Shown in pieces: positions 5,695 through 23,689 of a stretch of 24,736 nt of DNA. Every line of letters starts with the position of its first letter. The stretch's first letter is position 1. Made by a program: the position numbers and the translations under genes. The stretch comes from a virus. The stretch lies in the IMG/VR virus record IMGVR_UViG_3300047462_000172, one strand, 5' to 3'. The notes below the pieces were generated by a model, which did not search any database, was not told where the DNA came from, and saw only the letters and a list, made by a program, of their open reading frames with translations.

Positions 5695-6018
5695 ATGAAA
5701 CTCATTAAGCGTCGAATGCAGATTGAGTATAAGGAAATTTCTGAAACGGCTTGGCTTGAAGCGTATGTGAAGTATCTTCAAACATATCCAATGCGCCTAT
5801 CGCGTCCAACAGAACACGATAAGCACATTCACGATTTGCAATCGTTTAAGTTATTTGCCGCTAATATTTGGCATCCAATTGCTGAAGTTGCTCAACAGAC
5901 AGAATCTGAAGAGAAATTTATTGAACGAGCAACAAAAATTGAATCGAAAGAAGAATATACTGACCTTCAGTTTATTGCAAATGATCTTGGTGAGATAGTT
6001 AGTTGTGTATTATTTTAG
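5695..6018 (+). CDS. Hypothetical protein
   Basis: 107 aa ORF with GAGG SD. Confidence 0.65.
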   Translation: MKLIKRRMQIEYKEISETAWLEAYVKYLQTYPMRLSRPTEHDKHIHDLQSFKLFAANIWHPIAEVAQQTESEEKFIERATKIESKEEYTDLQFIANDLGEIVSCVLF

Positions 6019-12860: not shown

Positions 12861-13034
12861 ATGACTTTCATATTGACTATAGTAGGTAATTGTTCAATGT
12901 GTTCTGCAACAATTCGAACGAATGCATATTATTGGTTGCTTGAAAATCCTAACAGAATTGCATGCTCTAAATGCGCTGATAAACTTAGCGTGTACACTAA
13001 TTACGAACGAGCAATGGGAGTAATAAAGAAATGA
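12861..13034 (+). CDS. Small zinc-finger protein with NYERAMGVIKK C-terminus (not in ORF track)
   Basis: 57 aa MTFILTIVGNCSMCSATIRTNAYYWLLENPNRIACSKCADKLSVYTNYERAMGVIKK; CxxC...CxxC; starts right after the upstream stop. Confidence 0.7.
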   Translation: MTFILTIVGNCSMCSATIRTNAYYWLLENPNRIACSKCADKLSVYTNYERAMGVIKK

Positions 13035-13261
13035 ATAACTATAAGGTACAGAAAATTAACGTTCAGCATGATACTGAGTCTCAGGACTACAAAGACATAA
13101 AGGCTACTATTCGTATCTTAAAAATGTTGTTCGATTACGACAGAAGCATGACAGTAGAACAAGCATTAACACACAACGAAAGCTATGTTCGTTATTGTGA
13201 TGCAAAAAACAAACCAAATCCAATGGCTGATTATGAACGTGCAATGGGAGTTATTAAATGA
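13031..13261 (+). CDS. Small hypothetical protein ending DYERAMGVIK
   Basis: 76 aa; ATGA-coupled, GGGAG SD inside the upstream repeat. Confidence 0.75.
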   Translation: MNNYKVQKINVQHDTESQDYKDIKATIRILKMLFDYDRSMTVEQALTHNESYVRYCDAKNKPNPMADYERAMGVIK

Positions 13262-13452
13262 TCACAAATCAAGAAGCACAAACAACTATTGATACGCTTG
13301 ATAAAGTGATTAAGCAATTGTCGCTTACTTCAGGGTCAACATATTTTGGTTTAATTGTTGATATTCAACAATTTTTACGATCAAACAGCGAAGCTAATGA
13401 TCGTCGTGTCAGTTCTAATTACGATCGTGCAATGGGAGTAATAAAGAAGTGA
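13258..13452 (+). CDS. Small hypothetical protein ending NYDRAMGVIKK
   Basis: 64 aa; ATGA-coupled, GGGAG SD inside the upstream repeat. Confidence 0.75.
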   Translation: MITNQEAQTTIDTLDKVIKQLSLTSGSTYFGLIVDIQQFLRSNSEANDRRVSSNYDRAMGVIKK

Positions 13453-13619
13453 ATGGAAAGCAACTTGAATTAATTCAACACGTAATTGATAGTTTGAAAG
13501 ATCCAAAATTATCCCCATATTATGGTATGAATTTTAGAGAAGCAGCATTTATATTAGCCAAGATACTTGAGGAAGTAAGAGATTATGAAACCAACACTAA
13601 CACACCCATCGTACCATGA
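13449..13619 (+). CDS. Small hypothetical protein (not in ORF track)
   Basis: GTG in GTGA overlap with GGGAG SD; 56 aa MNGKQLELIQHVIDSLKDPKLSPYYGMNFREAAFILAKILEEVRDYETNTNTPIVP. Confidence 0.55.
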   Translation: MNGKQLELIQHVIDSLKDPKLSPYYGMNFREAAFILAKILEEVRDYETNTNTPIVP

Positions 13620-15461: not shown

Positions 15462-16538
15462 ATGGTAAAGCCTCTATTTGATACTGCACCACCTGCAGTT
15501 GTAAATCCAGTGATTGTCGACACAGTGAATAGTCAAGTTCCTGCCATCAGTCCTCAATCATCTACAAACCTACCTGCGTTGCTTACGATTGACGATAGTG
15601 CGATCGATAGTTTGGGTGGGCAGTCTCGAATGCAACTTTCTGCACTTTCAACGAAGATGTTGGGGACAGTTCGTGCTTCTGATGCAGATGTATTTGGTCA
15701 GAAACTTAACGAACTTGTTGGTGTTGCAAAAGGAATGAATCCTGCTGAACTCAACAAAGGTGGTGTGATTTCGAAGATTACTCACTTCTTTGGTTCAGCA
15801 AAAGAGAAGATGCTTGCACAGTATCAGACTGTTGAGAAGCGAATGGATGCATTGGTTTCAGAATTGAATAAGAGCATTACTCTTCACACTCAACGCATTA
15901 CAGACCTCGAAGGGATGTATCAGACAAACTATCAATCCCACCAACAACTCGAAGCTGCAGTTGGTCAAGGTAAGCAATTGCTTGCACAACTTGAAGCTGG
16001 TCTACAACAGTTGAAGTCTGCTGGTGCAACTGACTCATTTGCAGCACAACGTATTCAGGATCTTGACCAGAAGGTACAGCGTTTGGAAAAGCGTATCGAC
16101 GACTTGAATCGTGCGATGTTGCTTGCCAAACAGACTGCTCCTGAAATTCGTCTACTTCAGGACAATGCTCGCACTTTGGTAACGAAATTCAAGGATGCTG
16201 AGGAAGTTACGATTCCTGCTTGGAAGAATGCATTTACACTCTATCTTGTACAGATGGAACAGAAGAAAGGTGCAGAACTCTCCAACAATATCGATGATTC
16301 GACAGATGCAGCATTTACAGCACAGGCTGATATGCTACGTTTGAATACAACTGCAATCGCAAAGGCGAAACAACGTTCAGTTGTCAGTATCGATACTCTT
16401 CAACACGTCCAAGAGCAGTTGTTGGGTTCGTTCGATGATCTTCAAAAGATCGAAGCAGAAGGTCGCCAGGCTCGAAAGGATGCAGAACCAAAACTCAAGG
16501 CTCTTGAGCAGGCTCTGATTGATCGATTTGTAAAGTAA
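15462..16538 (+). CDS. telA: Toxic anion resistance protein TelA family
   Basis: 358 aa coiled-coil; YQTVEKRMD, LEKRIDDL, QTAPEIRLLQDNARTLV, TIPAWK; Ter gene context. Confidence 0.85.
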   Translation: MVKPLFDTAPPAVVNPVIVDTVNSQVPAISPQSSTNLPALLTIDDSAIDSLGGQSRMQLSALSTKMLGTVRASDADVFGQKLNELVGVAKGMNPAELNKGGVISKITHFFGSAKEKMLAQYQTVEKRMDALVSELNKSITLHTQRITDLEGMYQTNYQSHQQLEAAVGQGKQLLAQLEAGLQQLKSAGATDSFAAQRIQDLDQKVQRLEKRIDDLNRAMLLAKQTAPEIRLLQDNARTLVTKFKDAEEVTIPAWKNAFTLYLVQMEQKKGAELSNNIDDSTDAAFTAQADMLRLNTTAIAKAKQRSVVSIDTLQHVQEQLLGSFDDLQKIEAEGRQARKDAEPKLKALEQALIDRFVK

Positions 16539-16566
16539 TTAACTCAATTTAACAGGAGATTTCAAT

Positions 16567-17337
16567 ATGTCAATTGTTCTCGAAAAGCGCGCCGAAAAGA
16601 TCGGCATCATTCTTGCAAAGGCTGGTATCGTCAAGGTTCCTCCAGTTCGTGTCGGTCTTGCATTGGACGTTTCAGGTTCAGCTCAAGGTTTGTATACAGG
16701 TGGCATTATTCAGAAGACTGTTGATCGCTTGATCCCAGTCGCGATGAAGTTTGATGACAACGGTGAACTCGATATGTGGTCGTTTGCAAACGGTTTCGAT
16801 CGTTTGGAAAATGCGAGTGCTTCGGACGAAGGTTCGTATGTTCAAGAGCAGATTCTTGAGAATGACGAAATTACGTTGTGGCAAGGTACCGAATATGGTC
16901 CAGTACTCAACGACATGATCAACTTTTGGTTCCCAAAGACAAGTACTGTTCAGCAAGTCGTTGAGGAAACAACTGGATTCTTTGGTAAGTTGTTTGGCAA
17001 GAAGGTTGAAGCTGCACCAGTTGCTCAAACTGCTACGCATGATTCTCATGGTCAATCGGTTGCATTGCCTGCGATGGGTATCTTGATTACAGATGGTGAG
17101 AATTCTGATCGTGCATATGCTGCACAGGTTTTGAAGGCTTCACAAAATGTCAATGTGTACTGGCAGTTGGTTGGTGTTGGCAAGTCAAGTTTCAACTTCC
17201 TTGAACAACAGGCTGATTTGTTGCCAAACGTTGGCTTCGTCAACTTGCATTCGTTGGACATCAGCGATGATGATCTCTACAATGCATTGATTGCGCCAGA
17301 ATTCTTGGAGTGGGTGAAGACTCGCGCACAGGCTTAA
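16567..17337 (+). CDS. vWA domain protein (Ter-associated)
   Basis: MIDAS DVSGS, FDDNGELD, GTEYGP, ITDGEN, YWQLVGVG. Confidence 0.88.
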   Translation: MSIVLEKRAEKIGIILAKAGIVKVPPVRVGLALDVSGSAQGLYTGGIIQKTVDRLIPVAMKFDDNGELDMWSFANGFDRLENASASDEGSYVQEQILENDEITLWQGTEYGPVLNDMINFWFPKTSTVQQVVEETTGFFGKLFGKKVEAAPVAQTATHDSHGQSVALPAMGILITDGENSDRAYAAQVLKASQNVNVYWQLVGVGKSSFNFLEQQADLLPNVGFVNLHSLDISDDDLYNALIAPEFLEWVKTRAQA

Positions 17338-17374
17338 TTGGTATTTTTTAAACGTTCTTAAATAGGAGAAGGAC

Positions 17375-18403
17375 ATGTCCTCATTGAAGCATTATTATGG
17401 TGGTAGTTTCGTCTTCACAGCAGTTGCTGCTCTGTTGGGGTTTCTACTTGGTGGTTGGGCTGGAATGGGGATTGTTCTAATCCTCGGAGTGATGGAAACA
17501 TCTCTATCGTTCGACAATGCGGTGGTTAACTCCACCGTGTTGCGAAATTGGGATGCTGAATGGCGTCATCGATTTTTGACTTGGGGTATGCCAGTTGCAG
17601 TTTTTGGAATGCGATTGGTACTTCCTCTTGTGATCGTTGCAGTGATTGGAATGTTGAATCCAATCGAAGCTGTGAAACTTGCATTTCAGAACCCGCATGA
17701 ATATGCACGTTTGCTTACCTCTGCACATAATGAAATCGCAGCATTTGGTGGTGCGTACTTGTTTATGATTGCATTGAAGTTCTTCTTGGATAGTGATAAG
17801 GATAACAACTGGATTTCGTTTATCGAGACTCCGCTTGTTGCACTTGGCAGTTCCTTGAAGACTGAAATTGCAATTCCTACAATCGTTGCAGTTGTTGTTG
17901 GTGCTACAGCTTACCTCTTGGGTTCAATCAGCTTCTTGGTTGCTGGTCTTGCAGGTATCATTGCCTATGTAGGATTTGATTACTTGGGTGGTCTTGTTCA
18001 GAATGAAGATGGTGGTGCACCAGCTGACTTTGTTAAGCAGGGTCTTGCTGGCTTCTTCTACCTTGAATTGTTGGATGCATCGTTCAGCTTCGATGGTGTG
18101 ATGGGTGCATTCGCTCTCTCTACAAACATCCTTGTGATTGCTCTTGGACTTGGAACTGGTGCGATGTTCGTACGTAGTATGACAATCCACTTGGTCGATA
18201 AGGGTGTGTTAGATGAGTTCAAGTTCTTGGAGAACGGTGCGTTCTACGCAATCGGTACTCTTGCATCGTTGATGTTTGTTGGTGCGTTTATTGAGATCCC
18301 AGAAATTATTACAGGTCTGATTGGTGCAAGCTTCATAGGGGTTGCATTGTTGTCATCGATCCTGTATAATCGCAAGCACGCTAACGATTCTGTTCCTGCT
18401 TAA
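17375..18403 (+). CDS. DUF475/TerC-like integral membrane protein
   Basis: ETSLSFDNAVVN, VFGMRL, YLELLDASFSFDGVMGAFA, LENGAFYAIG; multiple TM helices. Confidence 0.9.
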   Translation: MSSLKHYYGGSFVFTAVAALLGFLLGGWAGMGIVLILGVMETSLSFDNAVVNSTVLRNWDAEWRHRFLTWGMPVAVFGMRLVLPLVIVAVIGMLNPIEAVKLAFQNPHEYARLLTSAHNEIAAFGGAYLFMIALKFFLDSDKDNNWISFIETPLVALGSSLKTEIAIPTIVAVVVGATAYLLGSISFLVAGLAGIIAYVGFDYLGGLVQNEDGGAPADFVKQGLAGFFYLELLDASFSFDGVMGAFALSTNILVIALGLGTGAMFVRSMTIHLVDKGVLDEFKFLENGAFYAIGTLASLMFVGAFIEIPEIITGLIGASFIGVALLSSILYNRKHANDSVPA

Positions 18404-18413
18404 GAGAAAATCG

Positions 18414-18794
18414 ATGATTAAGATTCTAGGAATATTGGTTCTGTTTACTCTGGTCGGCTGTCGTCCATGCGAAACATGCTCGCAGTCGAACGGAGGATTT
18501 GTTGAAGCTTGCACAACTCAACAATACAGCCACGATGGTAGATGCTATGATCATATTGGTTATGTTTATCATTATCGGTACTATATTGGACAAGGTGATG
18601 TTGAAACTAATCAAGTGCCAAAATATTTAACCGAGTTCCCAGAAAGAACCTTACTTCGTTCACTACAGGAATGTGATGACGTAAAGCAAGCAACTCGCGA
18701 TTCGTTGGAAAGCAATAGTAAAGGTGTTTTAGGAACAGGAAGATTTACGTATACAATTTTGTCTGAATCGTGTGATCCGTATTATTTTAATTAA
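18414..18794 (+). CDS. Cys-rich putative lipoprotein
   Basis: MIKILGILVLFTLVGC signal peptide with lipobox; six further Cys. Confidence 0.6.
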   Translation: MIKILGILVLFTLVGCRPCETCSQSNGGFVEACTTQQYSHDGRCYDHIGYVYHYRYYIGQGDVETNQVPKYLTEFPERTLLRSLQECDDVKQATRDSLESNSKGVLGTGRFTYTILSESCDPYYFN

Positions 18795-18803
18795 GGAGTT
18801 TAT

Positions 18804-19403
18804 ATGTCAATCAATCTCGTTAAAGGTGGAAGAATCAATCTCTCGAAGGAATGCCCTTCATTGACGAAGGTCCGAGTTGGTCTTGGTTGGGAGCCAAACG
18901 CAACTGATACAGGTACTGATTTCGATCTTGATGCATCGTTGTTTATTTGCAAGAATGATGCAAATGGCAGCCCAAAGTTGATCGCTGACGAATACTTTGT
19001 ATTCTACGGCAACAAGACTTCGCCTGATGGTGCAGTTGTTCACTCGGGCGATGATCGTACTGGTGGAAACAGTGCAGTTGGTGATGATGAGACAATTCGT
19101 GTTGATCTTACCAAGTTGAATCCTGCTGTTGATGAGCTTTCATTTGTCGTTACGATTTATGAAGAGACGAAGCGCAAGCAGAACTTTGGTCAGGTGAAGA
19201 ACAGCTACATCAAGTTGTATGATGATGCAACTGGTGCAGAGATCGCGAAGTACTCTCTTGAAGATGACTTCTCAACTGAAACTGCTGTTCAGTTCGGTTC
19301 GCTCTACAAGAAGGATGGTGCGTGGTCATTCAAGGCTGTCGGTACAGGCTACAAAAAGGGCTTGGCTGACTTCGTTGTAGCATACGGTGGCAATCTCGCT
19401 TAA
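18804..19403 (+). CDS. terD: TerD family stress protein
   Basis: INLVKGGRINLSK, VGLGW, DFDLDAS, FVFYGN, HSGDDRTG, GDDETI, QNFGQV, WSFKAVG. Confidence 0.93.
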   Translation: MSINLVKGGRINLSKECPSLTKVRVGLGWEPNATDTGTDFDLDASLFICKNDANGSPKLIADEYFVFYGNKTSPDGAVVHSGDDRTGGNSAVGDDETIRVDLTKLNPAVDELSFVVTIYEETKRKQNFGQVKNSYIKLYDDATGAEIAKYSLEDDFSTETAVQFGSLYKKDGAWSFKAVGTGYKKGLADFVVAYGGNLA

Positions 19404-21239: not shown

Positions 21240-21473
21240 ATGGAACAACTATCATTGTTAGAACGAACAAATCGTATTAATGAAATTGATATGCACATCG
21301 AAAGTGCAGATCAATATATTCAATACCTGAAGCAAGATAATGATTTGGTTGACCAACTTCTAAAATTTCCTCGCACATCTATGGAATCACCAGAATTTAA
21401 GCAGTTGTATAATCAACGCATACAGTTATGGGAAACATATGAAGCTGCACGAAATAACCAACTCACCATCTAA
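21240..21473 (+). CDS. Hypothetical protein
   Basis: ATG 21240 after GGAG. Confidence 0.6.
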   Translation: MEQLSLLERTNRINEIDMHIESADQYIQYLKQDNDLVDQLLKFPRTSMESPEFKQLYNQRIQLWETYEAARNNQLTI

Positions 21474-21675
21474 AGTTCAAATTCTTAAAGGAAAACTTAA
21501 AGAGTTGGACGATGAACACACTAATTATATAAAACGGTGTGATAAATGGGAGCAACAATTTGGAACTCCCTTAGACCCACCTGCTAAGTATCAAAAGAAA
21601 CTCGACGAATATTATGCCAATCGAAAACGATTAATAGATGATATTAATTGGTACGAAGCAATGGGAATAATATAA
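21439..21675 (+). CDS. Hypothetical coiled-coil protein (MKLHEI start, WYEAMGII end)
   Basis: 78 aa; TAATG-coupled to the next gene. Confidence 0.7.
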   Translation: MKLHEITNSPSKVQILKGKLKELDDEHTNYIKRCDKWEQQFGTPLDPPAKYQKKLDEYYANRKRLIDDINWYEAMGII

Positions 21676-23482: not shown

Positions 23483-23689
23483 ATGGACACCATGATAGAT
23501 CCAAACGAAGAACTTGACTATTTTGTTGGTAAGAATGTCAACGAAGCACAAAACCTTCTTGTTGATCTTGATGTTGAGTACCGCATTTGGAAGAGTGATG
23601 CTCCTCGTGATACGATGGATTTAAAACCAAATCGTGTTAACCTTCGTGTCGATTGGATGGATAATGTTGTTAAGGCTTATTATGGCTGA
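23483..23689 (+). CDS. Peptidase inhibitor I78/potato inhibitor I-like protein
   Basis: FVGKNVNEA...YRI...TMDLKPNRVNLRVD...V...YG pattern; 68 aa. Confidence 0.7.
   Translation: MDTMIDPNEELDYFVGKNVNEAQNLLVDLDVEYRIWKSDAPRDTMDLKPNRVNLRVDWMDNVVKAYYG

Follow-up and report, generated by a model that had tools for sequence, protein, structure and literature searches.

A short C-terminal peptide motif on unrelated small proteins of an uncultured clade of jumbo phages

The IMG/VR virus record IMGVR_UViG_3300047462_000172, a stretch of 24,736 nucleotides that was analysed at its full length (herein referred to as the window), encodes three consecutive plus-strand open reading frames (ORFs) whose products all end in the peptide (N/D)Y(E/D)RAMGVIK(K) and show no similarity to one another beyond it in BLASTP comparisons. 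A preliminary description of the window, made from the sequence alone, had drawn attention to this C-terminal tag on three unrelated proteins and had left room for a motif confined to these ORFs or for ORFs that are simple duplicates of one another. We find instead that the tag ends 58 non-redundant ORFs belonging to 36 protein families, all on contigs of uncultured phages that are most closely related, among cultured ones, to the jumbo phage XacN1 and its kin, and that it follows the consensus acidic linker-[A/N]-[Y/F]-[D/E/N]-[R/D]-A-M-x-[V/I]-[I/L/V], with zero to six residues before the stop codon. The best explanation that we can offer, tentatively and with a little less than even confidence, is that a tethered, short C-terminal helix docks varied small proteins on one partner, while the free position within the motif supplies the ribosome-binding site of the next gene.

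The first of the three tagged ORFs, carrier A (12861..13034, plus strand), encodes 57 residues, is likely a zinc ribbon (two CxxC pairs), matches no Pfam or PHROG family and ends in NYERAMGVIKK (12999-13031, plus strand; stop codon at 13032-13034). The ATG of carrier B (13031..13261, plus strand; 76 residues, helical) overlaps that stop codon as ATGA; its tag is DYERAMGVIK (13229-13258, plus strand), and a search of 5.8 billion proteins with carrier B returned only itself. Carrier C (13258..13452, plus strand; 64 residues) ends in NYDRAMGVIKK (13417-13449, plus strand), and its stop codon overlaps the GTG start (GTGA) of an untagged 56-residue ORF (13449..13619, plus strand) that is coupled translationally to it via the GGGAG of the third tag. 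Carriers A and C score 20.3 and 18.4 bits, respectively, against the tag profile. All three tag copies contain GGGAG, and the stop-start overlaps that follow them are ATGA, ATGA and GTGA, as had been described. The codon differences among the copies, said to be mostly synonymous or conservative, proved to be so in a codon-by-codon comparison, in which copies 1 and 3 use the same codon at six of seven shared residues and copy 2 agrees with the other two at 3/7 and 3/6.

Beyond the window, our broad sample comprised 48 loci around genes for a phage SbcC/Rad50-like recombination nuclease (T4 gp46-like; herein gp46-like), and the position of the motif was counted over 680 kb in 56 loci; for the window's own phage, whose source contig is 93.6 kb long, the tag count covers the window, and most of the relatives sampled are represented by fragmentary contigs. 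The motif is a feature of protein ends: 50 of 52 matches to the core regular expression lie within six residues of a stop codon, all on the coding strand, where position alone would predict about 11%. The strong profile matches, like those 50, all lie within six residues of the C-terminus, and none of these is N-terminal. Pattern matches in loci L008, L035 and L050 fall inside an ORF or out of frame and were set aside as chance. The distance from core to stop across the 58 copies is zero in 31, one residue in 12, two in 7 and three to five in 8, and the endings after the core differ (VI, IL, K, KK, ARK, GKR, EPRY).

Tagged genes often follow one another in tandem, surrounded by genes for replication and recombination, and the gene content of these arrays varies between relatives. 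Four consecutive tagged genes, ending in YEYAMGVLARK, YDRAMGIVGKR, YDRAMKGIK and YERAMGVIK, lie downstream of an RFC-like clamp loader on contig L009, which was found with a peptide-level DNA pattern. Profile searches of further contigs showed that seven of the eight consecutive genes after the gp46-like gene are tagged in G007 (one tag being degenerate) and that G008 has four tagged genes (again with one degenerate). At the scale of genomes, there are 13-15 tags in the complete 363-kb genome G010, IMG/VR record IMGVR_UViG_3300021514_000002, five in G014 (155 kb) and two in G003 (151 kb). The fourth tag of L009 (YERAMGVIK; L009:6623-6809) sits in a frame that is open for 21 codons only, and a 43-residue ORF in another frame ends 26 nucleotides upstream; a frameshift mutation, an assembly error or a programmed shift could produce this arrangement.

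The proteins that carry the tag have little else in common. BLASTP divides the 58 carriers into 36 families, of which 24 have a single member; the majority of carriers are without a Pfam or PHROG match, and in the roughly 30 carriers scanned no profile covers the tag, such matches as there are (Phage_sheath_1C, Gp23, Portal_T4 and DUF6794) being confined to the bodies. The recognisable carriers include spare copies of virion domains that are encoded apart from the structural genes, namely a free-standing 135-residue protein in which a copy of the tail sheath's 106 C-terminal residues is joined by a linker to the tag (L009:5452-5859), a tagged 451-residue protein in which the sheath C-terminal domain is joined to a portal fragment (L145:3298-4650, minus strand), and a gp23/24-like paralogue with an extension of about 45 residues that ends in the tag (L150:3019-4308, minus strand). 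The true sheath and capsid proteins carry no tag. A small P-loop protein, a DUF6794 protein and zinc ribbons are further recognisable carriers. In the complete genome G010, the tag is found on ORFs of 71-140 residues, on a gp23/24-like paralogue and on a sheath/portal-fragment protein; the large replisome proteins, polymerase included, are untagged.

The 12 residues that precede the tag are enriched in Asp and Glu (26%, against 16% elsewhere) and poor in hydrophobic residues (24%, against 37% elsewhere), and position -1 is mostly Ala or Asn. In the AlphaFold2 model of carrier B, helices at residues 18-36 and 42-58 are followed by a loop (KPNPM) and a short helix at residues 64-71 over ADYERAMG; the predicted local distance difference test score (pLDDT) is about 71-75 in this part of the model, and the tag helix is placed beside the two-helix body with moderate confidence. 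Spaced at i, i+3, i+4 and i+7, the Y/F, A, M and last hydrophobic residue would occupy one face of such a helix. Pfam, PHROGs, a profile search of the PDB and the papers searched for the motif strings and for shared C-terminal tags hold no description of the motif; the PDB search gave only weak matches, to a tetratricopeptide repeat (TPR) helix of BamD and to the C-terminus of DegQ, and a protein atlas search with the tag returned only generic helix matches. The DegQ match (Bacillus subtilis, 46 residues; PDB 9vlh/9vli) is to the C-terminal DKYNYAMKI with an E-value of 0.27 and may be chance.

Selection acts on the peptide, as the preliminary description had supposed, and not on its DNA, because the codons vary freely: across the 58 copies Arg is encoded by all six of its codons (AGR and CGN), Ala by four and Tyr by both equally, and third-position entropy is 1.1-1.8 bits, compared with approximately zero at the fixed first and second positions. 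A clade-specific dialect is superimposed on this conservation. In a tree of the gp46-like genes, the tags fall in one part, and F-type tags occur in a single clade with a Shimodaira-Hasegawa-like approximate likelihood ratio test (SH-aLRT) support of 100; this clade has 14 F and 3 Y, whereas the other lineages have no F in 41 tags (40 Y and 1 W; Fisher's exact test, 7e-11). The same clade shifts from R to D/E at position 3 (R in 5/17 of its copies and in 33/41 elsewhere) and from G to E at position 6. At least two gene families straddle the clade boundary, with Y outside and F inside. Gene conversion was rejected as the source of the F dialect, since the tag codons are not homogenised: in a complete F-clade genome, 106 of 231 same-residue tag codons are identical, no more than codon bias would give. 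Because the F-clade codons have not been made alike, the switch from Y to F must have occurred at the protein level across many genes, as a common reader would produce. A change of dialect on unrelated proteins points to a shared constraint, and its clade-wide extent favours a shared reader.

The tag codons would also contribute to translation of the gene that follows. At position 6 the residue varies (G, K, E, S or R), yet 52 of the 58 codons there begin with two purines. In the window tags, ATG-GGA-GT yields a GGGAG Shine-Dalgarno sequence 7-10 nucleotides from the next start, composed of the G that closes the Met codon and the GGA-GT of the free position and the following residue, so that the earlier proposal of a tag doubling as ribosome-binding site holds for the window. 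In several of the copies with extra residues after the tag, the Shine-Dalgarno sequence lies in those added residues instead. Of 47 tagged genes, 26 have a stop codon that the next start overlaps or directly adjoins, and in 34 that start lies within 15 nucleotides, while 11 have no detected start within 25 nucleotides downstream; many untagged genes of the window are coupled by the same ATGA overlap without this peptide. A role as ribosome-binding site cannot account for the conserved Y/F, D/E, R, A, M and hydrophobic pair.

In our reading, the tag is a short linear motif in which an acidic, weakly hydrophobic linker leads into a putative two-turn amphipathic helix, [A/N]-[Y/F]-[D/E]-[R/D]-A-M-x-[V/I]-[I/L/V], that lies at the C-terminus or a few residues short of it, and this motif is attached to many unrelated small accessory proteins and spare virion-domain copies within one uncultured jumbo-phage clade. 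We infer that the hydrophobic face (Y/F, A, M, V/I and I/L/V) most likely serves as a docking handle for one partner, of phage or host origin, and that this single reader would handle the carriers collectively, be it in recruitment, localisation, packaging or turnover. The same tag codons would serve both the peptide and translational coupling, and the direct repeats of 26-40 nucleotides that result probably aided local gene gain and loss as a side effect.

Several observations weigh against this reading. The invariance of A-M is partly built in, as these residues were fixed in the regular expression (the few exceptions among the profile matches, AYDRVKRIL, AFDRANRAL and KYDRTMKLL, look like decayed copies), and the F and Y counts by clade are not phylogenetically independent. 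No reader emerged from the gene content common to G010, G014 and G003 and absent from the tag-less genome G013, a comparison that left only YqeY-like, MazG-like and GIY-YIG-like proteins; no S41 C-terminal protease is present, and the ClpP-like gene occurs in tag-less relatives as well. The tag is also patchy in its distribution. The closest relative of the window, a 74.8-kb contig, lacks it, as do the 244-kb relative G013 and the whole genomes of XacN1, Xoo-sp13 and RsoM2USA, and the whole genome of RAS14 has one weak match, inside a 752-residue protein and not C-terminal.

A bolder form of the docking hypothesis, possible in our view but doubtful, is that the tag is a clade-wide address label, for which one co-evolving receptor would gather a changing set of small host-directed proteins and spare capsid, portal and sheath domains at one site, with the tag DNA acting as an in-frame, coupled joint for newcomers. 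Such a label would, for example, be a C-terminal, uncleaved counterpart of the capsid targeting sequence (CTS) of T4, loading cargo into the prohead. The T4 CTS is the closest known concept: the T4 internal proteins (IPI, IPII, IPIII and Alt) are diverse and share only this short terminal sequence, which is read by one assembly partner, and many of the small T4 proteins that bear it are anti-defence proteins (PMC3012670). The likeness extends to the T4-type setting, with T4-type prohead genes (PF07068, PF07230 and PF03420, i.e., gp23, gp20-like and gp21-like) present in G010, G013 and G014, and to the possession by diverse small proteins of one short terminal peptide in common. However, the T4 sequence stands at the N-terminus and is removed by the gp21 protease through cleavage at (L/I)xE, whereas the tag described here is C-terminal. 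A cleavable CTS was rejected, as (L/I)xE is not enriched within the 15 residues before the tag (12 of 58 carriers, compared with a background of 18%). The suggestion that the tag represents an undescribed system can be retained for the motif, which is without a description in Pfam, PHROGs or the papers searched, but not for the principle, as there is precedent for diverse phage proteins that have a terminal peptide in common.

A second likeness is to the tails with which client proteins dock on the replicative clamp or polymerase (T4 gp43, gp33 and gp55 on the gp45 clamp; the acidic tails of T7 gp2.5 and gp4 on the polymerase; the C-terminal tip of bacterial SSB). These also combine an acidic linker with a short hydrophobic C-terminal tip, and they too are found on unrelated proteins that one hub reads; the tagged genes, moreover, lie amid replication and recombination genes. 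The difference is one of clientele, as the carriers in the 363-kb genome G010 are all small ORFs or spare structural-domain copies, and a clamp-binding tail was rejected because no large replisome protein is tagged in this complete genome. The tag resembles none of the clamp-binding consensus sequences known to us (QL[SD]LF, QxxLxxFF and the LDFL type of T4).

The tag might require no shared reader at all if it were a self-contained short helix that caps or stabilises its carrier, self-associates, or contacts membrane or nucleic acid, in which case its recurrence would reflect a cheap and portable solution; we consider this rather unlikely. The empty search for a reader is in keeping with such a helix, as are the placement of the tag helix next to the two-helix body in the model of carrier B and the weakly matching strings in the BamD TPR helices and the DegQ C-terminus. 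However, no fewer than 36 unrelated bodies, including those of a sheath domain, a capsid-fold paralogue, a P-loop protein and zinc ribbons, would all need to accommodate the same helix; the linker, acidic and weakly hydrophobic as it is, suggests a peptide that is tethered and not packed; and a switch of three tag positions throughout a clade is difficult to account for unless the carriers are under a common constraint.

Decidedly less probable still is a degron or adaptor mimic that delivers its carriers to an AAA+ protease of the host or phage for timed removal of early proteins, or that occupies the adaptor-binding site of that protease. The model here is the XB tail of SspB and the ssrA degrons, in which a peptide near the C-terminus tethers proteins to one machine (ClpXP), and the tag is reminiscent of these in that two hydrophobic residues close the motif, 31 of 58 copies are exactly C-terminal and ClpP-like genes occur in these phages. 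The AMGVIK of the window can also be likened to ALRVVK, which we take to be the ClpX-binding tail of SspB. Nevertheless, the extensions of 1-6 residues (K, KK, ARK, GKR, EPRY), which make the distance from tag to C-terminus variable, do not fit an ssrA-type requirement for a fixed, free C-terminus; the terminal K is missing from most copies; Y/F-x-x-A-M has no counterpart in either SspB or ssrA; and a ClpP-like gene is found in the tag-less relative too. The SspB tail, for its part, binds the ClpX zinc-binding domain at any polypeptide position (PMC12373786). The ClpP-like proteases, which these phages encode besides a gp21-type prohead protease, are at G010:232537-232836, G013:63906-64274 and G014:123944-124333.

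A further alternative places the function in the nucleic acid, the repeat being a portable unit of ribosome-binding site and stop-start overlap, and a recombination joint for cassettes, of which the peptide is a by-product. The DNA is certainly repetitive: in a repeat search, the three 40-nucleotide tag copies form the top repeat family of the window (all plus strand), with copy 2 (13227..13266) 73% and copy 3 (13415..13454) 93% identical to copy 1 (12997..13036), and a degenerate DNA pattern finds three matches in the window and none in 100 shuffles. The 37 of 40 nucleotides that copies 1 and 3 share include bases outside the conserved peptide. Bases 13002-13027 of copy 1 are identical, at 26 of 26 nucleotides, to the tag on an unrelated gene of contig L009; this stretch is the sole strong DNA match between L009 and the window, the flanking genes on both sides differ, and the probability of such a match arising by chance, estimated from codon frequencies, is about 1%. 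The presence of GGGAG at 7-10 nucleotides from the next start in every window copy and the differing content of the tandem arrays among relatives are likewise in line with a coupled joint, and direct repeats spaced as these are (190-230 bp) would permit gene gain or loss by recombination.

Even so, we regard a function of the nucleic acid alone as very unlikely. Third positions are nearly free and Arg alternates between AGR and CGN across the 58 copies, several copies have their Shine-Dalgarno sequence in added residues outside the tag, the 11 of 47 tagged genes noted above lack a detected start nearby, and ATGA coupling is frequent among untagged genes of the window that do without the peptide. 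As for the proposed cassette joint, the 37/40 and 26/26 matches are no more than suggestive of it. Short repeats beside small variable genes are reportedly also a feature of the promoter-early stem-loop (PeSL) cassettes in the hyperplastic regions of T4-type phages, for which Arbiol and colleagues are said to have proposed modular shuffling in 2010. The PeSL repeats are, however, non-coding DNA or RNA and conserved as nucleotides, whereas the tag repeat is coding and conserved as peptide, with free third positions. The last alternative, a relic of tandem duplication in which the carriers are old paralogues with diverged bodies and a retained C-terminus, has hardly any probability in our estimate, for although tagged genes are often neighbours, weak paralogy exists (two neighbours in G008, E-value 4e-5; a G001 and a G007 protein, E-value 3e-4) and a YxWxGxxW-like pattern recurs in some bodies, the carriers comprise distinct folds of known origin (sheath C-terminal domain, gp23 fold, P-loop, DUF6794 and zinc ribbons), the 36 families include 24 singletons, and, where a carrier is a copy of a known protein, the tag follows a linker and the original is untagged.

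Three other places in the window recall the tag. The preliminary description had reported a weaker echo at the end of a 78-residue ORF (21439..21675, plus strand), a degenerate-tag candidate; the ending WYEAMGII (21649-21672) followed by TAATG (to 21677) is indeed present and possibly a degenerate copy, but it is not a secure one, as it scores 3.2 bits against a profile of 46 tags that excludes it (and 19.9 bits against the first profile, which included it). Residues 34-42 of carrier B (13130..13156, plus strand) read FDYDRSMTV, a weak internal match (1.6-3.2 bits) that is possibly a relic of an older tag after loss of a stop codon, in which case two small ORFs would have fused, or else chance. 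The ORF at 23683, which begins MADPTIIERAMAIY, was picked up by the repeat search as a fourth partial DNA copy (window:23683-23715; 23694); it was rejected, as its IIERAMAI is N-terminal and has a chance-level profile score.

The window itself has a G+C content of 39% and derives from a large phage, with nearly all genes on the plus strand and many chained via ATGA overlaps. Its products include a dCTP-deaminase-like protein, a DnaQ-like exonuclease, a phosphoribosyltransferase, FolE2, a superoxide dismutase and a GGDEF-EAL protein, as well as TelA, TerF-like vWA and DUF475/TerC proteins. Within this repertoire, the auxiliary genes at window:4650-11686 and 15462-19403 form an unusual set, comprising a superoxide dismutase chained to the GGDEF-EAL protein, FolE2, the phosphoribosyltransferase, DUF3135 and a tellurite-type cluster (TelA, TerF-like vWA and DUF475/TerC). 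Judged by the exonuclease and the gp46-like nuclease, the closest relatives in culture are the jumbo phages XacN1 (a Xanthomonas phage), Xoo-sp13, RAS14/CM1 and RsoM2USA, and uncultured IMG/VR contigs are closer to the window than any of these. The three tagged ORFs occupy a variable spot, because the closest IMG/VR relative (64% exonuclease identity) lacks them and has other genes in their place; a megablast search of the region against cultured phages gave no match. In L096, L110-L114, L117, L119, L120 and L122 (from locus position 6001), the match to the gp46-like gene spans 400-900 extra bases and is split into pieces, which suggests that some lineages carry an inserted element such as an intein, an intron or a homing-endonuclease gene.

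The small genes of obscure function in giant phages number in the hundreds, and a common ending would mark a subset of these as clients of one process. The discovery of a single reader would offer a first approach to the function of dozens of gene families together. In the tag, moreover, one stretch of sequence serves both a protein motif and the ribosome-binding site of the next gene, and, if portable, the tag could serve phage engineering as an address for cargo.

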